From the NCBI GenBank assembly GCA_965222155.1, contig CBDCTH010000012.1, positions 1,344,001-1,408,000 on the forward strand: 64,000 nucleotides of DNA, read 5' to 3'. The translations under genes were made by a program, and so were the position numbers. Below the pieces are notes generated by a model that ran no database searches, was not told where the DNA came from, and saw only the letters and a list, made by a program, of their open reading frames with translations. This stretch comes from Gammaproteobacteria bacterium. GTDB lineage: Bacteria > Pseudomonadota > Gammaproteobacteria > Eutrophobiales > Eutrophobiaceae. Below, in pieces: positions 3,578 to 63,846 of this stretch; position 1 is the first letter of the stretch, and each line of letters opens with the position of its first letter.

Positions 3578-4384
3578 TCACATGTAGGTTTGAAGGAAAC
3601 GTGTGATTCCTGTTACATAGACATCTTTGCTGAATAAATACCCGCTATTATGATCCCCGGAAATAGAGAGAAACATTTTCGGTTCCCGCGCGAATTTAAA
3701 CAAGCGTTGTCCGAATCTGACCGGTATCAACTCATCTTGAGGGCTATGGATAATTAAGACCGGGCAGTTGAACGAGGTAATTTGTTTATCTACAGGATAA
3801 TGTATCCGTGAAATCCAGGAAACCGGCAAGTAGGGATAATAATATTTTCCCAGCTCTTTAATGGATGTAAATGTGGATTCCAGTATTACCGCTGCGGGCA
3901 TGATCTTTGCGGCTAATGAAGCGGCTACTGCACCGCCCAGGGAACGACCGAATACGATAATCTCATCCGGGTGTAACTGGCGTTCATCAACCAGATAATC
4001 CCAGGCGGCCATTGCGTCCTGGTATGTCCCGTGCTCGGAAGGTCGCCCATCACTGTTACCGTATCCGCGGTAATCGATAATGAAAACTGATAAACCGATG
4101 TCATAAAATATGGAAATTGATTCAATACGATGAGAAATATTCCCGGCATTACCATGAAAAAACAGCAGGGTTGCTTTCGCATCTGGATTATGTACATACC
4201 AACCGTGGATTTTTATTTTATCATCCGTGACCAGGTAAACGTCCTCATAATCCAAACCGATGGTTGCGGGCGTGTCGCCAATCCTTTTGCCAGGAAAAAA
4301 GATCATTTTTTCCTGGAATACAAAGAGCAGGGCCATAAAGCCAAGACAAAGTATTAAGACGATAAGAACAAGGGAACTCAGCAT
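3578..4384 (-). CDS. Alpha/beta hydrolase with N-terminal membrane anchor (ABHD13/Bem46-like)
   Basis: LFFHGNAGN, DYRGYG, GRSLGG nucleophile elbow, HSPQDE; start chosen at ATG 4384. Confidence 0.85.
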   Translation of the reverse strand: MLSSLVLIVLILCLGFMALLFVFQEKMIFFPGKRIGDTPATIGLDYEDVYLVTDDKIKIHGWYVHNPDAKATLLFFHGNAGNISHRIESISIFYDIGLSVFIIDYRGYGNSDGRPSEHGTYQDAMAAWDYLVDERQLHPDEIIVFGRSLGGAVAASLAAKIMPAAVILESTFTSIKELGKYYYPYLPVSWISRIHYPVDKQITSFNCPVLIIHSPQDELIPVRFGQRLFKFAREPKMFLSISGDHNSGYLFSKDVYVTGITRFLQTYM

Positions 4385-19742: not shown

Positions 19743-20528
19743 ATGCTAAAAGATAAAGTTGTCTTTATCACCGGCGGCGCAAGGGGCATCGGCTACGGCA
19801 TTGCCCTTGCCGCACTTGAAGCCGGTGCGCGGGTCGCCATTGGCGACCTGGATGAACAAACGGTATTTGCCGCGCGGGATACTCTGCTCATTGAATCAGC
19901 CGCCGTCGATGAGGCAGTATTCGCTACGGTCGTTGATGTGGCGGATGAACCATCGGTCGAAACAGCATTGGCTGCGACACAAGCGTATTTTGGTTTCCTC
20001 AATGGATTGGTCAATAACGCAGGAGTCATTCGTCTGGGAGAAAATCTCGGAGCGAGTGTGAACGACTGGCAGGTACAAATGGAGGTCAATGTCATCGGTA
20101 CGCACAACTGCTGCCGGGCGTTCGCAAAGATGCTTATCGACGCGGCACAACCCGGGGCAATCGTTAATATTGCCTCCAATTGCGGCAAAGTCGGCTATCC
20201 GAATATGGCCGGATATAATGCCAGCAAGGCTGCGGTTATCAATCTGACCCGCTCGCTGTCGGCGGAACTGAGTGACCATAAAATTAATGTCAACGCGATT
20301 TGTCCCGGCGGTGTCTATACGCCCATGCTGATGGAGGTCGCTGAAGCCATCGGCGAACGCATCGATGAGCAGGCGGAGGAACTGGTCAAGACGATGGTGC
20401 CGGCACAGTTAGGCCGGCATATCGAACCCCTGGAGGTCGGGCGGGTAGCCGCATTTCTTTTGTCCGATCATGCCACCGTTATCCGCGGGCAGTCGATCAA
20501 TGCCGATGGCGGGGATACGCCCTACTAG
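19743..20528 (+). CDS. Classical SDR oxidoreductase
   Basis: TGGARGIG, NNAG, YNASK catalytic motif. Confidence 0.92.
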   Translation: MLKDKVVFITGGARGIGYGIALAALEAGARVAIGDLDEQTVFAARDTLLIESAAVDEAVFATVVDVADEPSVETALAATQAYFGFLNGLVNNAGVIRLGENLGASVNDWQVQMEVNVIGTHNCCRAFAKMLIDAAQPGAIVNIASNCGKVGYPNMAGYNASKAAVINLTRSLSAELSDHKINVNAICPGGVYTPMLMEVAEAIGERIDEQAEELVKTMVPAQLGRHIEPLEVGRVAAFLLSDHATVIRGQSINADGGDTPY

Positions 20529-20793
20529 TACTCTTTCCAGGTGATATTATCATGTTCAGAGCCAAGCAGCGGCTTCAAGACAAGGCGCAGTCCGCAGAGA
20601 ATGGCCCGCCCTTGTCAAGGACTGCAACGCCGGATTGGAGCCGCTGCTTGGCTCCTTGCGGGCGGGCCGGGAAGCGGTCGCCCGCGCTGTTGCGCCTCTT
20701 GGCAAGGGCTGGCCATTACCGGCGAGGCGCGCCTGGCGCTCAACCGCTTCCCGACCCGCTGAATATGACAATATCACCTGGAAAGAGTACTAG
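20525..20793. mobile_element. 269-bp MITE with 35-bp terminal inverted repeats
   Basis: CTAGTACTCTTTCCAGGTGATATTATCATGTTCAG against the reverse complement of 20759-20793 (2 mismatches); overlaps the SDR stop codon. Confidence 0.8.
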
Positions 20794-20819
20794 ACACTGG
20801 TCACTGGTTGTCAGGATGC

Positions 20820-55148: not shown

Positions 55149-55591
55149 TGTTCCTGGAGGGGGAGTAGAATTCATATGATAACTGTTTGTTATCACTAAA
55201 TAAAATCTGTTGTATTCTGCCTTTCTCAACAATATTTACAACATTTATACCAAAGGGATACAGTTGAATCGCCGCGTGTGCTACGTAGACCCTAGAGCTC
55301 AAGCGAACCTATCTCTGCTGGCCCCTATCGTCAATGTGCCATCGGCTAAGATTGATAAACCGTGATTTTCCTAAACAGTTCGTGGTACAAGAAAGGGAAG
55401 AGGGTCGGCTCGTAACCACTGCTGTATAAGACATATATCCGTAGAAAAAGAAGAAAAAATCACAATACCAATAGAAATTTCAATCAAATGATTTAATTTA
55501 TAGCCATATTGGTTAAAATATTGGTACAATATGTATTGACATCAGCTATTTTATATCATATGATTGGAATGAATGAGGATTTTCTACGAGC

Positions 55592-55948
55592 ATGGTGCTA
55601 GACGAGTCGATAAGGCACCAGTTGGTTCTCCTTGCACGAAGGCGTAAAGCCCGCGTGACTGAGTTTCGTTCTGATCGGCCGAGTGACTGGCGCCCTGGCC
55701 AGGTACGCAATCCAAATGGGGTGCTCGACAGCCACTTCACGGATGCATCAGCCTGGGAGTATATTGCGACCAAGCTTGAGAACGGACACCCTGTCGATGC
55801 CATGCGATTAGATAAGCCACCCGGGGCTAAGGGTTATGTGATGAAGATCGATATTGAGCCTGATATGCCTCAACTCTATGTCAAGCTGCAACTGGGATCC
55901 GGGAAGATCATCGGACGCAGTTTTCACTACTCTGAACGAAAAGACTGA
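55592..55948 (+). CDS. Putative MqsR-like (RelE-fold) toxin
   Basis: C-terminal LYVKLQL...SFH pattern typical of MqsR relatives; toxin-first arrangement. Confidence 0.55.
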   Translation: MVLDESIRHQLVLLARRRKARVTEFRSDRPSDWRPGQVRNPNGVLDSHFTDASAWEYIATKLENGHPVDAMRLDKPPGAKGYVMKIDIEPDMPQLYVKLQLGSGKIIGRSFHYSERKD

Positions 55949-55959
55949 AGAGCCTTGAA

Positions 55960-56520
55960 ATGAATCCAAATCAATCAACAACTGGGCTGCAGACAGTGCA
56001 GCAAGAACTTACGTGTCCACTGTGTGGCAACGCTGGCATAACGACATCATGGAAACCTGACGTATTCAACTATGGGTCCGGCGAATCCATGGCGGAACTG
56101 ACAGTGGATGTTCCTGTGCGCCGATGTGAAGACTGCGACCTCGAATATCTTGATGATGAGGCCGAACGATTGAAACACGGGGCGGTATGCCGGCATCTTG
56201 GCGTCCTGACGCCAGACGAAATTCGGCATATCAGAAAGGGGTTTGGTATGACACAAGCAGAATTTGCTCAGGTAACCGGTATCGGTGTAGCATCACTAAA
56301 CCGCTGGGAGAACGGCCTGACTATCCAGACGCAGGCGTACGACCGGTACCTGCGCCTCTTGACGGCGCACCCGAGCAATATCCGGGATCTTGAGAGGTTT
56401 ACGAACCTCGTCCCTTCCCTACAGTCCGAAGTCCCCTCCGGGAACCGATTCCGCGTCTTGGATGTGACCCAGAATTTACTGAAGGAACAAGAAAGCTTTA
56501 AGCTACGCAAAGCTGCGTGA
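55960..56520 (+). CDS. MqsA-like antitoxin (Zn ribbon + HTH-XRE) with C-terminal extension
   Basis: CPLC...CEDC, LTPDEIRHIRK..MTQAEFA...SLNRWENG; about 50 extra residues ending RKAA. Confidence 0.85.
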   Translation: MNPNQSTTGLQTVQQELTCPLCGNAGITTSWKPDVFNYGSGESMAELTVDVPVRRCEDCDLEYLDDEAERLKHGAVCRHLGVLTPDEIRHIRKGFGMTQAEFAQVTGIGVASLNRWENGLTIQTQAYDRYLRLLTAHPSNIRDLERFTNLVPSLQSEVPSGNRFRVLDVTQNLLKEQESFKLRKAA

Positions 56521-56524
56521 CGTC

Positions 56525-58375
56525 ATGTACATCACAACATTTTATTCCTTCAAGGGTGGTGTTGGCCGCACGATGGCCCTGGTCAACGCCGCCGTCAATC
56601 TCGCCCTGGCGGGCCGCCGAGTCCTTGTCGTGGACTTCGATATTGAGGCACCCGGACTTGATACCTTCGACGTTCTGAAGCCGCATAAAGAAGTTCCCGG
56701 GATCATCGATTTCGTCACCCAGTATCTGGGAACCGGGCAAGCTCCGAATATCTCCGACTTTATCGGCGAGTGTCCCCCTATCGGCGAACGAGATGGAAAG
56801 CTGTGGATCATGCCATCAGGCAGAAACGAGACTTATGCTACGACTTTCAATCAGGTTGACTGGGGTGATCTATATGAAAGGCGCGATGGATATTTGCTGT
56901 TTGAAGATATCAGGGGGCAATGGAAACAGACCTTAAAACCGGACTACGTGCTGATTGATTCCCGCACCGGACATACAGATACGAGCGGAATCTGCACTCG
57001 GCAGCTTCCCAATTCTGTTGTAGTCCTGTTCTTTCCGAATGAACAGAACTTGCGGGGCCTGGTCGATGTGGTCAGGGATATTCGGGCCGAGGCTGAGAGT
57101 CCGCGTAAAAAGAATATCGAATTTCACTTTGTGATGTCTAATGTCCCGGATATGGATGATGAAGATCGGATTCTCGAAAGTAAGATCAAGGCTTTTCAGA
57201 ACCAACTCGGTTTCCGGCAGGAACCGATGATTGTACATCGGTACGACAGTCTTTCCCTTCTTAACCAGGTGGTTTTTTCTAAGGACCGCCCGAAAAGCCG
57301 ACTGGCAAAGGAGTACAGCAAGATCGTGGGTGAAATTGCTGTGCGCAACCCGGATGATCGGGATGGAGCACTAGAGTATATCCGAAGGGCAGAGCGACCC
57401 CGAAAATGGATAGACGACGATTCGATACGCAGGCGGCAGGAGATGCTTGACAAGATCAAACGGGCGCACCCGACTGATGGAGAAGTTCTGTTTCGCCTGA
57501 GTGTGCTTAAAGAATCTCATGATGATCTGGAATCTGCGTCCTTACTGTATAACCAGGCAATTGATGCTGGGTACGATAAACCAGAAGCCTATTTAAAACG
57601 CTCAAAATTCAGCGAACAAAACAGCTATCCGGACGGAGCGAGCGAAGATGCCTGGCATGTGCTGAATTTTAAGCAAGTTCCTCCGACTATGGTAAGAGAA
57701 GCAATTTCCCGACTGATGCGTTTGGGGGCATATGACTTGAACGAGGTAGTCAATTCTCCCGCGGTAATGTCGCTGGACCCTGATGACAAGCTCTGGATAG
57801 CCGATCCGTTCGATAGTTCATTAAACGATGTACAGCTTACAATATCCCTCCTTGAACCAATCCTCGATGTCAGCGAACTATCGGAAAGCGATCGCTATTG
57901 CACAAAACATTACCTAGGGTTGTCGTATATGGGGTTAGGAAGATGTTTAGAGGCAGTGGGGATGTTTCGAATCGAGGACGAGGATATAACTGACCTGTAT
58001 ATTGCATATACGTTTAATTACGCAATGGCAATGTGGGGCGCAACCGGGACGATTCATGCTGAGATTTTTCAACGTGCCGTAGAGCTTGATCGCTCTGACC
58101 CTTCAGATGACGTCGGCCCGAACCACCTTCAGTGCATGGCGATTGCCTACTGGGCGGCTGGCGACGATAACGCAGCACTTAACTACGTGGACCAAGCACA
58201 GCGGGCTATTAATGACTTTCGAGGTCGAACGGAGTTTAGTTGCTGGCGTTATCTCCAGGTCGAAGTAAGGTCATTCGATGAGGATCTAGGTGAAATTCGT
58301 ACCTTGATCAAAAAACCTGGTTCTGTAGTGCCTAAATTTATGGCTGTGAAAGGTAACGGATCTGCCGAGGCGTAG
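56525..58375 (+). CDS. KGGVGR-type ParA/MinD-like NTPase fused to a TPR-like helical domain
   Basis: FYSFKGGVGRT, VVDFDIEAPGL, DYVLIDSRTG; Ala/Tyr/Leu-rich helical repeats in the C-terminal half. Confidence 0.82.
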   Translation: MYITTFYSFKGGVGRTMALVNAAVNLALAGRRVLVVDFDIEAPGLDTFDVLKPHKEVPGIIDFVTQYLGTGQAPNISDFIGECPPIGERDGKLWIMPSGRNETYATTFNQVDWGDLYERRDGYLLFEDIRGQWKQTLKPDYVLIDSRTGHTDTSGICTRQLPNSVVVLFFPNEQNLRGLVDVVRDIRAEAESPRKKNIEFHFVMSNVPDMDDEDRILESKIKAFQNQLGFRQEPMIVHRYDSLSLLNQVVFSKDRPKSRLAKEYSKIVGEIAVRNPDDRDGALEYIRRAERPRKWIDDDSIRRRQEMLDKIKRAHPTDGEVLFRLSVLKESHDDLESASLLYNQAIDAGYDKPEAYLKRSKFSEQNSYPDGASEDAWHVLNFKQVPPTMVREAISRLMRLGAYDLNEVVNSPAVMSLDPDDKLWIADPFDSSLNDVQLTISLLEPILDVSELSESDRYCTKHYLGLSYMGLGRCLEAVGMFRIEDEDITDLYIAYTFNYAMAMWGATGTIHAEIFQRAVELDRSDPSDDVGPNHLQCMAIAYWAAGDDNAALNYVDQAQRAINDFRGRTEFSCWRYLQVEVRSFDEDLGEIRTLIKKPGSVVPKFMAVKGNGSAEA

Positions 58376-58551
58376 TTCTGTTCAACCTCGGCATATCGGC
58401 TTAGACAGCACTCTACCGATTGGTGGTGGGGGAAAGAACACTATGAAATGGCTAAGAATTTAGGTGAGGCTATCCTGACTTTAATATCGATGATTACTAA
58501 CATCAATACTTTAGGAGGTTGAAGCTGCTACCTTCAACATATAACAAAAAT

Positions 58552-59873
58552 CATTAGTGTCCCAACGATTAATCGAATAAAATCAACTGGTTAGGTGTAT
58601 CGGGTTGTTTCATATTGTAATCAGTTTTGGTAAGTATATGATCCAGCGGCATTTTCTCAAAGACGGACACGCTCAAAATCTGTAATAGTGTGTAGAGACT
58701 AAGGGGGATATTGAGGCGTTTTTTGATAATGGCGACCAGGACATAGACCGTCATGGCGGTCCAGATTTGGGTTTTGACCGCGTGCTCGGCGGTGCCGTAG
58801 AAGGCGTTGATACGTAGAGGCTGCTTCATCCATTTGAAGAACAGTTCAACCTGCCAACGGCAGCGATACAGTTGGGTAATCGTGTGTGCAGGCAAGGTGA
58901 AGTGGTTAGTGAGGAAGACCAGTTGCCGGGTCGGTCACTTTGACTCTGCGGAGTTTATCCGGGTAGTGTTTGGCCGCGTAGAAGCCGGTGAGGACGACGG
59001 TCTGGTGGCACTGGAGGCCGGTGTGTTTATCGACGGGGCGGGCATAGCGGCGGCGCTAACGCCAGTGGGCCTTGGCCCGGACGATGAAGCAGGCGGCGGC
59101 CTGCTGCAAGGTGTAGCGGCGGCGGCAGTCCAGGTGGCCGCGCTCCATGATGTAGCGGGCGCCGGCTTCGGGCAGTAGCAGGTCGAGGCCCTTGACAGCG
59201 TGCAGTTTGCCGTCAGAGAGGTGGATAAACGTGGGAATACTGCCCCGCAGGTCGAGTAGCGTATGCACTTTGACGGCGCCTTTGGTGGTACGGACGCGGG
59301 CCCAGGGAAAGACGGACAAGCACAGGTCGATGGGGGTGGCATCAAGGGCATAGACGGTGTGTTTGAGTGCGAGGCCGACGTCCTCGTCGAGAGACAGTTG
59401 TCGGGCGCTGTGGATTAAGGCGTGGGCGACGTCGGCGTAGATGCGCCCGTCGCGGGTCGGGTTGGCATGGGCCAAGGTGTTGCATGAGACGGTGCCGCGC
59501 AAGCCCCTGTGGTACAACGTGTGGCGCTGTGCGCGCAGGCCGGCTTCGCTATCCCGCCGGCTCTCCCGGTAGGTGAGTTGAGCGAAGGCCAGACATAGGA
59601 ATTGGTCGAGGCAGGTGACGCGTTTGACTTTGTGGTGGCCGCGATAACGCTGCACACAGCGTCGGAAGGTATGCCTGGGCAGATGGGCCATGACTTGAGA
59701 GACGATGACGTTGCCGGTATACATGGGGCAAAACTCCCTGGTAATGAATAGGAGTGAGCGCAGGACAGGCAGGCGCCGCCGAATTCAAGTCGATGACAGG
59801 CAAAAATGATTTGTTTATTAAGCTATATCAATAAGTTACAACTACCCAGGCCTCAAACGTTGGGACACTAGTG
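58552..59873 (-). mobile_element. Inactivated IS4-family insertion sequence (DUF4372 + DDE transposase pseudogene)
   Basis: 16-bp TIRs CATTAGTGTCCCAACG / CGTTGGGACACTAGTG; transposase 59724->58569 with stop at 59056, frameshift near 58921, Y-R-E-K signature LYRCRWQVELFFKW. Confidence 0.92.
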
Positions 59874-59919
59874 AAGTCTTATAAAAAGACAGATCATTAA
59901 TCACCAGCGCTGAACGACG

Positions 59920-61311
59920 CTAAGCCGGCAGGATGTTGGCGTTCAACCGGAACAGGTTGCCAGGGTCGTACTGTCGCTTGACCTCGCGCAGGCGCTGGTA
60001 ATTTACACCGTAGGTTTCCTTAACCAGGCCTTCGCCGTGTTCGTTGTAGGAAGTCATATTGAGGTAGCCGCCATTGCCGGACGAGAAACGGGCCACCATA
60101 TCGTCCCACACTTTGCGTGTCCAGGCGATGTTGGCAGCCGTGTCCCCGGGCTCTGTCCACGATGAGTTGAACTCCATGAGATACGGCATGGAGCGGCTGC
60201 CGAACGCTGTCGCGTCGGCATCGATACGGGAACTGGCGCCGCGCAAATCATGCAGTACGAACGGCGTGCGTTTGGCCGGGCGTTCATTAAAGACCGTGAT
60301 CAATGCATCGAACACATCGTCCGTCATACGATCAAGGTATAGCGATTTCCAGTAATTCAGCAGCTCACCTTTCGGCAGGTACACGTCGAACATTTGCTGC
60401 ACGGCCGTGAAAGGTCGTGGGGCACTGAGATCAATGAGCGGCGTCGCAAGTTCCCGCAAAGGCTGTACGTATCGCTCACCTTCATCGGCTGGTCCGGCGT
60501 AGACACCGGCCGGGATAACGACTTCCTCGCCACGCAGTTCCGGCGGGAAGGTGTCGTGATCCGGGATCGTCCAGAAAAAGAATTCGGTCGTGAACGCATC
60601 GGGCGCCGTCTGCATGAATTCCCGCCAACCCTGCAGGATGGCGCGCGCCTGCGTCCCGGCGTACACCGGTGCACAATGCATGACCACGGGTCCCAATGGG
60701 TGCAAGCGGAACTCGAAGGTCGTGACGATACCAAAATTACCCCCTCCGCCGCGTATTGCCCAGAAGAGATCCGGATTCTCCGATGCATTTGCATGGCGCA
60801 ACTCGCCATCGGCAGTGACGATATCGACACTGAGAATGTTATCGACACTCATCCCGTACTTGCCGCGCACCCAGCCAAATCCACCACCGAGTGCGAGACC
60901 GGCAATGCCCGTTTCCGACACCACGCCGGCCGGCGCCACCAGGCCAAACGGCTGGGTTTCGTGGTCGATGTCGCCCAGCGTGGCGCCACCGCTGACCCAG
61001 GCAATTCGCTGCCCGGCATCGACCCGGACGCCGCGCATCAGCGACAGGTCTATCATCAGACCACCATCACAACTGGCATTACCCGCCACCCCATGACCGC
61101 CGCCGCGAACGGCCGGCAACAGGTCGTTCTTACGCGCCGTATTAACGCAATAACGCACGTCGGCAACACCCGTGCAGCGCACGATTGCCGCCGGACGCTT
61201 GTCGATCATGCCGTTGTGCAGGACCCGCGTTTCGTCGTAGGCCGCGTCACCCTGGCATAACACCGCGCCGCGAACGTTGTCGCGTAAAGATTGGATAATG
61301 GATTCGTGCAT
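59920..61311 (-). CDS. FAD-linked oxidase, BBE/6-hydroxy-D-nicotine-oxidase-like
   Basis: RGGGHG covalent FAD His, LFWAIRGGGGNFG, YDPGNLFRLN. Confidence 0.9.
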   Translation of the reverse strand: MHESIIQSLRDNVRGAVLCQGDAAYDETRVLHNGMIDKRPAAIVRCTGVADVRYCVNTARKNDLLPAVRGGGHGVAGNASCDGGLMIDLSLMRGVRVDAGQRIAWVSGGATLGDIDHETQPFGLVAPAGVVSETGIAGLALGGGFGWVRGKYGMSVDNILSVDIVTADGELRHANASENPDLFWAIRGGGGNFGIVTTFEFRLHPLGPVVMHCAPVYAGTQARAILQGWREFMQTAPDAFTTEFFFWTIPDHDTFPPELRGEEVVIPAGVYAGPADEGERYVQPLRELATPLIDLSAPRPFTAVQQMFDVYLPKGELLNYWKSLYLDRMTDDVFDALITVFNERPAKRTPFVLHDLRGASSRIDADATAFGSRSMPYLMEFNSSWTEPGDTAANIAWTRKVWDDMVARFSSGNGGYLNMTSYNEHGEGLVKETYGVNYQRLREVKRQYDPGNLFRLNANILPA

Positions 61312-61339
61312 GTGTCGGATATTTTAGCGCAAAGTCAGT

Positions 61340-62317
61340 CTAATAACAGCCTGCGACACGCGCCCTTTGTTGTACTAGAGTCAATACCAGGTCGATTACC
61401 GGGGTTGCTACGCCAACCAGTTGTCCCAGTTCATTTACCACACCCAGAAGAGCATCGATTTCCATGGTCCTGCCGGCTTCAAGGTCCTGCAGCATGGATG
61501 TTTTATGGGCGCCGACAGCGGCAGCGCCATTGATCCTCTGTTCCACGTCAATGCCAAACCGGACCCCCAGCTTTTCACCGATAGCCTGTGCTTCCAGCAT
61601 CATGGATTTTGCTATACCGCGCGTACCCGCCTCAGTCGCAATCACATCCAGGGTTGCGTGTGTCAGTACACTGATGGGATTAAAGCAGAGGTTGCCCCAT
61701 AACTTCACCCAGATTTCATTGCGTACTTCAGACCTCACCGGTGATTTGAAACCTGCACTGATAAGCGCTTTGCTCAGTTGGATACAACGTTCCGATTTTT
61801 CACCGTCGGGTTCACCCAGGGTAAATCTGTTTCCCTCTATGTGTTTAATAACACCCGGTTCACTGATTTCACAGGCAGGGTAGACAACACAACCGATAAC
61901 ACGCTGCGGACCGATCTCATTCCATTGGCGGTTACCAGGATCAACACTTTTCAGCCGGTGATTCTCCCAGGGACCCTTGAGCCCGTAAAAATACCACCAG
62001 GGGATACCATTGGCTGTAGTTACTACACAGGTTCGCTCTCCCAGCAACGGTTGCATCGCATCCAGGACATTCGGCACCGATGGTGCTTTCAGCGTAATAA
62101 TCACATAATCCTGGGGACCCGCTTCAGCGGGATCATGCGTACACTGCGGATAAGCGGTTATTTCCTGCCCGTCAGAAATTATTTTCAAGCCGTTTTTTTT
62201 CATCGCCTGCAGGTGCGGTCCGCGGGCAACCAGGGTGACGTCAACCCCCGATAAGGATAGCCGGGCGCCCATATACCCCCCGATAGCGCCGGCGCCATAA
62301 ATACAGATTCGCATCAA
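61340..62317 (-). CDS. Ketopantoate-reductase-like protein (PanE2/oxalyl-CoA reductase-like)
   Basis: GAGAIGG, NGIPWWYF, WVKLWGN, HKTSMLQD; coupled to the CoA ligase. Confidence 0.85.
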   Translation of the reverse strand: MMRICIYGAGAIGGYMGARLSLSGVDVTLVARGPHLQAMKKNGLKIISDGQEITAYPQCTHDPAEAGPQDYVIITLKAPSVPNVLDAMQPLLGERTCVVTTANGIPWWYFYGLKGPWENHRLKSVDPGNRQWNEIGPQRVIGCVVYPACEISEPGVIKHIEGNRFTLGEPDGEKSERCIQLSKALISAGFKSPVRSEVRNEIWVKLWGNLCFNPISVLTHATLDVIATEAGTRGIAKSMMLEAQAIGEKLGVRFGIDVEQRINGAAAVGAHKTSMLQDLEAGRTMEIDALLGVVNELGQLVGVATPVIDLVLTLVQQRARVAGCY

Positions 62318-63846
62318 ACCAGCCCCAATTTCCCGGCCAGGCCTATTCGTTGTACTTTTCCGGTCGCGCCTTTCGGAATATCATCCAGCAGCAAGATTTT
62401 CTTTGGTACCTTAAAACCGGCCAGATATTCTGCGGCAAAGGCGCGAAGTTCACTCTCGCTTGCTGTCTGACCGTCTTTTAACACAACAGCAGCAGCCACT
62501 TCTTCGCCCAGTTTAGAGTGGGGGACGGCGAAGGTGACAGCCTGGTTCACCGCAGGGTGATCCAGCAAAATTTCATCCACTTCCCTTGGTGAAATCTTTT
62601 CTCCCCCCCGGTTTATGATTTCCTTTAAACGGCCGGTGATGGTCAGGTATCCGTCCTCATTCATAACTCCCTGATCACCGGTTCGGAACCAGCCGTCTAC
62701 AAAATTTTCCCGGTTTGCGGTCGGATTATTTTCATACCCGGCCGTGACGTTTTTCCCTTGAATCACTACCTCGCCGATGGAACCTGCCCGGAGCAGATTA
62801 CCGGTGTCGTCCATTATCGCCACCTTCGGCCCGGCGGCGATACCTACGGTACCGGGCTTTCTGGTTCCGGGGGGTAACGGATTGCTCGTCATCTGGTGGG
62901 AAGCTTCCGTCATCGCATAAGCCTCAATAACCGGTGATTTAAACGTCTCCTCCAACTCACTCATCACCTGGGGGGGTAATGACGACGATGAAGAACGAAT
63001 AAATCGCAAGGCGGAATTCATCGCTATCTGTTTATTTTTACCGGCTCTGGACAGAATTGCCTGGTGCATGGTCGGAACCGCGGTATACCAGCTTGGCTGC
63101 GCGTCCTCCAACCAGGCAAAAAATTTCAATGCATTAAACCCGGGAGTACAAAAGATACTCGCACCGGCGCAGATACTCGAGAGAACGGCTGCAATCAGGC
63201 CATGAATATGAAACAGGGGCATCACGTTCAAACAACGGTCTTCGGCTGTGAGGTTCAGGGTAGTACGGATATTTTCTGCACTGGCACAAATGTTCCTTTG
63301 CGTTAACGGGACAATCTTGGGCCGCGAAGTGGTCCCGGAAGTGTGTAAAACCAGGGCAATATCGTCTCCACCGGCAAATTCAGGGGGGATGACTGCCTGT
63401 TCCTGCTGCCGTTTATCGACAGGTTCCAGTTCAAATTCACCCGCGGTCAAAGAGGCCCCCTTTTTCAATGTCAATATGGGGATATGCAGATCCCGCGCAG
63501 CGTCAATTGACGGGGACTGACTGTTTTCTTCCACGATCAGCACAGCGGCCTTGAGGTCTGAAAGATAAAAATCAAATTCCGCCTTTTGATATGCAGGATT
63601 GAGGGGAGCGGCAGTGGCGGCACAGGAAGTTGCAATAAAACATGCCGCCATCTCAGGGCCGTTAGGCAATACGATCGCTACCCGGTCATTTCTGTGTATG
63701 CCATTCCGGTTCAGTGTTGCTACCGTGTTTTCAACCAGTTGCAGTAAATCGCCGTAGCTGAGGGCTTCCTGTCCGGGGGCGTTTATTACAGTGGATTCAC
63801 TGTTTGCCGCTTTTATTAATTCCAAAACAGGCGTAATTTCAGACAT
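62314..63846 (-). CDS. Oxalate--CoA ligase-like acyl-CoA synthetase
   Basis: LHTSGTTSRPK, MPLFHIHGL, WYTAVPTMHQ, YAMTEASHQM, PKGATGKVQR. Confidence 0.85.
   Translation of the reverse strand: MSEITPVLELIKAANSESTVINAPGQEALSYGDLLQLVENTVATLNRNGIHRNDRVAIVLPNGPEMAACFIATSCAATAAPLNPAYQKAEFDFYLSDLKAAVLIVEENSQSPSIDAARDLHIPILTLKKGASLTAGEFELEPVDKRQQEQAVIPPEFAGGDDIALVLHTSGTTSRPKIVPLTQRNICASAENIRTTLNLTAEDRCLNVMPLFHIHGLIAAVLSSICAGASIFCTPGFNALKFFAWLEDAQPSWYTAVPTMHQAILSRAGKNKQIAMNSALRFIRSSSSSLPPQVMSELEETFKSPVIEAYAMTEASHQMTSNPLPPGTRKPGTVGIAAGPKVAIMDDTGNLLRAGSIGEVVIQGKNVTAGYENNPTANRENFVDGWFRTGDQGVMNEDGYLTITGRLKEIINRGGEKISPREVDEILLDHPAVNQAVTFAVPHSKLGEEVAAAVVLKDGQTASESELRAFAAEYLAGFKVPKKILLLDDIPKGATGKVQRIGLAGKLGLV

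Follow-up and report, generated by a model that had tools for sequence, protein, structure and literature searches.

The window analysed here, the whole 64,000-nucleotide stretch of DNA, comes from a gammaproteobacterial genome of 12 contigs and 53% GC (G000). It contains a dead insertion sequence (IS) of the IS4 family, which we call W1, and the genome holds a second, nearly identical copy, W2; statements that apply to both copies refer to W. The nearest DNA relatives that we found are D1 (L009), which has an intact 388-aa gene and 83.7% DNA identity to W, and D2 (L010), from two genomes of the same genus. The features of W1 and its flanks are the following (window coordinates):

56525..58375, plus strand: left flanking gene, encoding a ParA-like P-loop protein of 616 aa (weak TPR match)
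58552..59873, minus strand: dead IS4-family IS, copy W1, 1322 bp (terminal inverted repeats, frames and Pfam DUF4372/DDE_Tnp_1)
58552..58567, minus strand: 3' terminal inverted repeat, 16 bp, CGTTGGGACACTAATG in gene orientation
58569..58895, minus strand: C-terminal remnant of 108 aa, carrying YRCRWQVELFFKW, largely spared by the burst of A:T>C:G changes
58925..58926, minus strand: site in W1 of a frame-shifting 11-bp deletion relative to W2, between CAACTGG direct repeats
59056..59724, minus strand: truncated transposase frame, 222 codons followed by TAG at 59056-59058
59043..59770, minus strand: tract of the A:T>C:G burst, element bases ~103-830 (scan statistic)
59858..59873, minus strand: 5' terminal inverted repeat, 16 bp, CACTAGTGTCCCAACG in gene orientation, also conserved in D1 and D2
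59920..61311, minus strand: right flanking gene, an intact FAD-binding oxidase (Pfam FAD_binding_4 and BBE)

When W is read through with an X at the stop, it matches DDE_Tnp_1 with 85.9 bits and DUF4372 with 88.4 bits (cut-offs of 23 and 25 bits, respectively), against 114 and 115 bits for its closest intact homologue (P0002), and "IS4 family transposase" is the source annotation of some of its homologues. Like the IS4-family elements with DUF4372 and DDE_Tnp_1, W presents both domains, inverted repeats, a 9-bp target duplication (at W2) and a gene of 388 codons. The DDE domain and the inverted repeats are present; the whole frame and the intact acidic catalytic residues are absent. Unlike a working IS4 element, W carries a stop at codon 223, the replacement D194E and 32 residues unique to it, and W1 has the 11-bp deletion in addition. 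Asp194 of the motif MDRG, which we take to be the catalytic aspartate, is Glu in W and Asp in 13/13 homologues. The earlier note had listed this replacement (MDRG to MERG) as an example of A:T>C:G, but GAC to GAG is a C>G change, and the same applies to its example N178K.

To the right of W1, the sequence matches the nearest genome, G049, at 93% from query base 4379 (window 59878), and synteny with the relatives G049 and G045 begins there. To the left, window 55500-58551 has no match in either of these two nearest relatives. No 9-bp target duplication surrounds W1, whose two ends present ATAAGACTT and ATTTTTGTT; because it lacks such a duplication, the position of W1 at a synteny break suggests an IS-mediated rearrangement. 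The right flank (59874-62500) shows 8 A:T>C:G among 77 G000-specific changes versus 1/87 on the G049 branch. These changes are scattered over all 2.6 kb and their share is not significantly above that of the core regions (p = 0.13).

The second copy, W2 (1333 bp; G000:C12:2712586-2713918), was absent from the earlier note's account of the element. It differs from W1 by 5 substitutions and the 11-bp indel, and both copies carry the same TAG stop. W2 keeps 388 codons and its sole defect is this single TAG, which stands at codon 223 in place of a Tyr codon (TAT in D1, TAC in D2); the proposal that the stop lies one step from TAT agrees with D1. On both sides W2 is flanked by GGCGGTTTT, a 9-bp target duplication, as are also found at B1, B2, C1, C2 and D1. 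Because it has its own target duplication and different flanks, W2 represents a separate, true insertion. It lies between two giant repeat-protein genes of a multi-copy family (G000:C12:2703737-2712277 and 2716291-2723025), which have ~76% GC and open frames of 2847 and 2245 aa.

Two related subfamilies are found in G000, each with two copies: subfamily B is ~75% identical to W and both of its copies are broken, and subfamily C is ~71% identical, with an intact 388-aa gene in C1, the C copy examined. In subfamily B (L003 1483-2649, or G000:C1:44040-45205, and L004, or G000:C12:2746695-2747861), a single in-frame TAG occurs at a conserved Tyr (MDRA*LDF), and copy B2 has an additional 1-bp insertion. 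Since a lone in-frame TAG replaces a Tyr codon in both W and B, amber suppression was considered and rejected: a CUA anticodon is found in 0/46 tRNAs of the genome.

We used three-taxon parsimony to reconstruct the substitutions along the branch that separates W from the D1/D2 node, a polarisation that rests on relatives only 83-84% identical in DNA. This branch carries 151 changes, 42 of which are A:T>C:G (18 A>C and 24 T>G on the coding strand). On the branches of the relatives, this class accounts for 3/51 changes in D1 and 4/68 in D2 (7/119 together; Fisher p = 2e-6 vs W), and on nine other terminal branches of the family for 51/571. The branch of the sister subfamily B, which is also dead, presents no bias (4/63). 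When the comparison is limited to sites at which 5 or more of 7 further outgroups support the D state, A:T>C:G makes up 30/72 changes on the W branch versus 2/27 on the D stem. The excess that the earlier note had read by eye, with both A>C and T>G on the coding strand, is real. Since ~9-10 of these 42 changes could have taken place on the D side instead, we place the size of the burst at ~30-37 changes. On the W branch, A is replaced almost exclusively by C (A>T, 2; T>A, 1). The expected share of A:T>C:G, computed by hand from host per-site rates, is ~9% for a sequence of 50% A/T. An early three-way comparison with subfamilies B and C (37/147, 12/128 and 26/193) was set aside, these being too distant, and D1 and D2 were used instead.

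The A:T>C:G changes are concentrated in one part of the element. Within element columns 100-835, 36/281 A/T sites were changed to C:G versus 6/272 outside (Fisher p = 1.4e-6); with just 36 of these 281 sites altered, the description of the element as saturated was too strong. The best scan interval covers columns 102-830, and its score was reached by 0/300 shuffles. The other classes of change are unclustered (53/674 inside the tract vs 56/523 outside). The tract runs from ~47 nt upstream of the ATG to ~4 codons beyond the TAG, but the stop is unlikely to have set this boundary because it is itself a T>G change. The ends of the element are indeed spared, as had been claimed, but the spared parts are larger than the ~50 last codons proposed: they comprise ~100 bp at the start of the element and ~500 bp (~160 codons) at its end.

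In the tract, 23/143 T were changed to G and 13/138 A to C. The two kinds are interleaved, and the number of runs of the same kind (~17, counted by hand) is close to the ~17.6 expected, which indicates the absence of strand-coordinated runs. Among the 16 trinucleotide contexts, TTC is the hottest (6/32), closely followed by CTT (5/31) and CTC (5/38), although these counts are small; GTC (2/45) and GTT (1/44) are the least hit. This trinucleotide analysis revealed no sequence motif or homopolymer context at the burst sites, and at the 5' boundary of the tract a simple scan detected nothing resembling a sigma-70 promoter. GAA+TTC is the context that a study of Pseudomonas aeruginosa mutT lines ties to oxo-dGTP mutagenesis (PMC12318082).

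We further analyzed the coding effect of these changes. Of the 38 A:T>C:G changes that fall in codons, 37 change the residue and a single one is silent, whereas all other classes of change on W comprise 31 residue-changing and 60 silent substitutions. The working relatives present ratios of 11:30 (D1) and 27:31 (D2). The excess is almost purely A:T>C:G, since substitutions of the other classes are for the most part silent, as in a working gene, and this class represents 37/68 of all residue-changing substitutions on W. Across codon positions, the changes are distributed 17/19/2 against 152/241/76 A/T sites available (p = 0.10); because this distribution follows A/T availability, the hits look unselected. 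The earlier note had counted over 30 such sites in the first 222 codons, and we indeed find 31 in codons 1-227, 30 of them residue-changing.

The substitutions shift residues towards Arg, Gly, Ala and Pro. The GC-content of the tract is 0.639 in W versus 0.592 in D1 and 0.580 in D2, and the third positions are unmoved (GC3 of 0.740 in W; 0.743 and 0.712 in D1 and D2). The pairwise comparison to D1 yields a dS of 0.49 and a dN/dS of 0.22; for W2 against D1, dN/dS is 0.331 in codons 1-250 and 0.106 in codons 251-388. A total of 22 residues that are invariant in 9 relatives are replaced in W, and A:T>C:G is involved in 17 of them, which is consistent with the MutT/8-oxo-dGTP class of signature named in the earlier note.

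Relative to 13 intact homologues, taken from the 120 top entries listed out of 8000 scored (best protein identity of 83%), 32 residues are unique to W: 24 can be reached only via A>C or T>G, 6 possibly so, and the remaining 2 take a different single step. These 32 residues occur in none of the 13 aligned homologues, which answers the question whether intact relatives already possess them. Several residues that the earlier note might have included in its count (V6, C212, 'EAGA' and 'PATGRQ') are shared with P0002 and belong to the lineage, not to the burst. Transitions dominate normal decay, and they have no visible share in the burst of W. These substitution patterns show that the W lineage was a functional transposase gene through most of its past and then received almost only A:T>C:G hits.

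The mutational spectrum of the host was determined from three 20-kb core regions with G049 as the nearest genome (92-97% identical to G000 over most matched pieces) and G045 as the outgroup, for a total of 42,431 three-way sites. A:T>C:G represents 46/816 changes on the G000 branch and 51/941 on that of its sister G049. On the G000 branch, this class accounts for 8/205 changes at four-fold sites, or 8/738 ancestral A/T sites (1.1% vs 12.8% in the tract), and for 6/153 changes outside ORFs. The mutT gene, whose status the earlier note had proposed to check, is apparently whole: the candidate gene matches TIGR00586 with 118.5 bits (cut-off of 97.9) over an open 335-aa frame with no stops. Two features of a mutT signature, the dominance of the class among unselected changes and its presence on both strands, are found in W; a genome-wide spread and a defective or absent mutT are not. 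A mutator acting across this host chromosome is excluded for the period after it diverged from G049.

The other repeats of the genome do not present the burst either, which is in line with the selectivity for this element that had been proposed. Among singleton changes in 37 repeat families, 313/2899 (~11%) are A:T>C:G. In the 24 families with a consensus ORF, this class makes up 324/2972 changes in 56 broken copies and 59/640 in 34 intact copies, the classification of copies as broken being crude, and its share is at most 22% in every copy of this per-copy analysis. A dead ISAs1-like copy, unrelated to W and interrupted by a ~100-bp insertion (L133; G000:C12:2605107-2606394), shows 14/55 A:T>C:G among its copy-specific changes and 11/23 where three outgroup copies agree, i.e., where the changes are robustly polarised; its sisters show 1/11 and 5/23. 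A ~270-bp repeat (window 20523-20796) that could have served as a neutral control has just 2 copies in G000. Several genomes of the genus contain dozens of matches to it (~87-94%). A scan for GC-rich islands was unspecific, its 106 regions being mostly giant repeat-protein genes.

Several contigs of the assembly contain near-duplicate stretches, among C1, C4, C7, C8, C10 and C11 versus C12 and C10 (e.g., C8/C10, 29.8 kb at 99.4%; C4/C12, 19.7 kb at 98.3%). Together with the 7.28% contamination of the assembly, this suggests that strain variants were assembled side by side. The unpolarised SNPs between near-duplicate contigs include 229/1106 A:T<>C:G differences. In a 13-kb duplication of 99.7% identity, 39/42 substitutions are packed into 2.1 kb (L132 1422-3544, or G000:C1:16921-19043, versus G000:C12:32075-34198), a segment covering a dead group II intron that lies in an IS5-like gene. 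In that stretch, 21/39 differences are A:T<>C:G and most differences are shared with paralogues. Gene conversion explains this clustering, since the four paralogues form two haplotype groups.

We then searched for sister sequences of W. The family-wide DNA search yielded matches in 27/126 genomes, the nearest being 83% and 82% identical. In the collection of genome contigs, the 222-aa frame confirmed 373 relatives and matched 541 stretches by pattern; none of the best 80 of these stretches, which were kept, is W-like (best identity of 77%). Exact patterns for the mutated tract and for the spared 3' part both gave 0 matches in metagenome contigs. The family-wide, genome-contig and metagenome searches revealed neither a donor nor an intermediate nor a sister copy free of the mutations. 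The whole element is carried by contigs from 3 runs of 2 studies, with 5 other letters and no gaps, although these best-holding runs may include the source sample of the genome and are not fully independent. No RNA dataset was listed as carrying the stretch. The idea that the process is still running, based on 2 of the 5 differences between W1 and W2, was dropped, the other runs carrying the W2 state at the 4 of these 5 places that were listed, so that either copy may hold the derived state. A literature search of partial coverage brought up no account of a bacterial IS hypermutated by A:T>C:G changes within one tract.

A nearly pure A:T>C:G burst, bounded to one tract and older than the duplication of the element, marks W and is absent from the host background and from the other repeats of the genome. 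We consider it probable that this was a one-off event with an 8-oxo-dGTP/MutT signature on a single ancestral IS4-family copy, which was duplicated later. Indeed, the burst struck one ancestral copy once, because W1 and W2 share every burst change. A:T>C:G changes arise from 8-oxo-dGTP inserted opposite template A, which MutT normally prevents, and such insertion may well have been the chemistry here. The ancestral copy would have evolved until then as a working transposase gene before taking a short and intense burst of ~30-37 changes across both strands of an interior tract of ~730 bp, which would have destroyed conserved residues and probably made the TAG stop. The dead element would then have been copied, probably in trans by a related transposase, into W1 and W2.

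The burst may have been imported. In our judgment, there is somewhat less than an even chance that it arose in a donor cell or replicon deficient in MutT and reached an intact copy by patchwise recombination. The alternative raised in the earlier note, that the element passed through a donor with such a process, may likewise hold. The mutT mutators of E. coli and of Pseudomonas aeruginosa (PMC12318082) resemble W in their near-exclusive A:T>C:G changes on both strands and in their many function-destroying residue changes; TTC/GAA is also the most hit context in W, though by a small margin over CTT and CTC. For the P. aeruginosa mutT strains, no significant differences in AT>CG rates along the genome are reported (PMC12318082). 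In contrast to these lines, the signal of W lies in 730 bp of one element, with a host background of 4-6% and mutT present. Since a genome-wide MutT defect hits evenly, the tract needs an extra step, which could be recombination or else selection acting on the C-terminal part and the two ends. We know of no process that writes a burst at 13% of A/T sites into 730 bp of a bacterial chromosome.

Alternatively, the copy might have been hypermutated in place by repeated or highly error-prone synthesis between the promoter region and the stop, for instance through a patch of transcript-derived cDNA or mutagenic repair, an origin that we regard as unlikely, though to be taken seriously. It would fit the limitation of the burst to columns ~103-830 while other classes are unclustered, the normal host background and the T>G to A>C ratio of 23:13 in the tract; in addition, the genome contains remnants of group II intron reverse transcriptases. 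However, the interleaving of A>C and T>G without strand-coordinated runs, the simple scan without a sigma-70-like promoter at the 5' boundary, the T>G nature of the stop itself and the few hits in contexts favoured by Pol IV argue against it, and to our knowledge no mechanism for such local hypermutation has been described. In diversity-generating retroelements, A may become any other base, the changes affect a single strand, and a template repeat and a reverse transcriptase are required. Their high per-site rate at A positions and bounded tract are reminiscent of W, but the coding strand of W carries both A>C and T>G, with A to T and T to A nearly absent. Pol IV (DinB) resembles W in its A>C transversions and its regional clustering, but the latter is reported for 0.25-Mb bins (PMC12318082) versus a sub-kilobase scale in W, and GAC+GTC and AAC+GTT, the contexts that Pol IV favours, receive the fewest hits in W.

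The broader proposition is improbable in our view: that bacteria write dense, nearly pure A:T>C:G changes into a bounded stretch of a mobile element, from about the transcript start to the translated end, by a local process (cDNA patch or mutagenic repair with oxidised dGTP) and without a genome-wide mutator. If the local reading were true, the weaker excess of the ISAs1-like copy (11/23 robustly polarised changes) would be another trace of this process.

A mutT mutator episode of the host's own lineage, whose scars were kept by the dead element and removed elsewhere by selection, is very unlikely. The change class is the classic mutT one and a dead gene retains all hits, but the excess is missing at four-fold sites and outside ORFs, G049 behaves alike, an open mutT is found in the genome, and the hits are spread unevenly even inside W.

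Genome defence similar to repeat-induced point mutation (RIP), in which the cell would detect repeated mobile DNA and mutate it deliberately, is a little less plausible still. Fungal RIP changes C:G to T:A, acts on every duplicated copy independently and requires duplication. W resembles its products as a mobile element killed by dense point mutation, and the ISAs1-like copy represents a second, unrelated dead IS with an excess. Yet the class in W is A:T>C:G, its two copies share the whole burst and are 5 bases apart, and duplication triggered no further mutation. Broken and intact repeat copies present similarly low shares, the dead subfamily B is unbiased and the burst sites reveal no target motif. 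With a burst common to both copies and the other repeats clean, such a defence is largely excluded. The RIP analogy drawn in the earlier note, as well as its link to adenine modification, for which no modification-type motif was found, is not supported by these results.

Two last explanations are scarcely credible. That the tract was not mutated and derives from a divergent, GC-rich and functional transposase lineage, or from adjustment to a GC-rich host, would fit its raised GC-content and residue shifts, but its residue states are absent from the 13 aligned homologues and its frame contains a stop; adjustment to the host is excluded because third positions are unchanged and invariant residues are lost. 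A sequencing or assembly artefact might be suspected given the near-duplicate contigs and contamination, but two copies at different loci agree, runs of two studies carry the sequence, no motif or homopolymer context is apparent and the flanks are normal.

Whatever its origin, the probable one-off burst on an ancestral IS4-family copy has implications for how mutational signatures are interpreted. A MutT-type signature is normally taken as evidence of a whole-cell mutator, whereas here it affects ~13% of the A/T sites of one tract and ~1% of the neutral sites of the host. If the process was local, it would represent an undescribed way to hypermutate a defined piece of bacterial DNA, with bearing on the inactivation of mobile elements and on natural targeted mutagenesis. 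If the burst was imported, W would constitute the fossil of a community member, lineage or replicon, that was MutT-deficient over a long period, as well as a dead element that was moved in trans. Under either reading, these results call for caution when inferring the mutational history of a host from its mobile elements.
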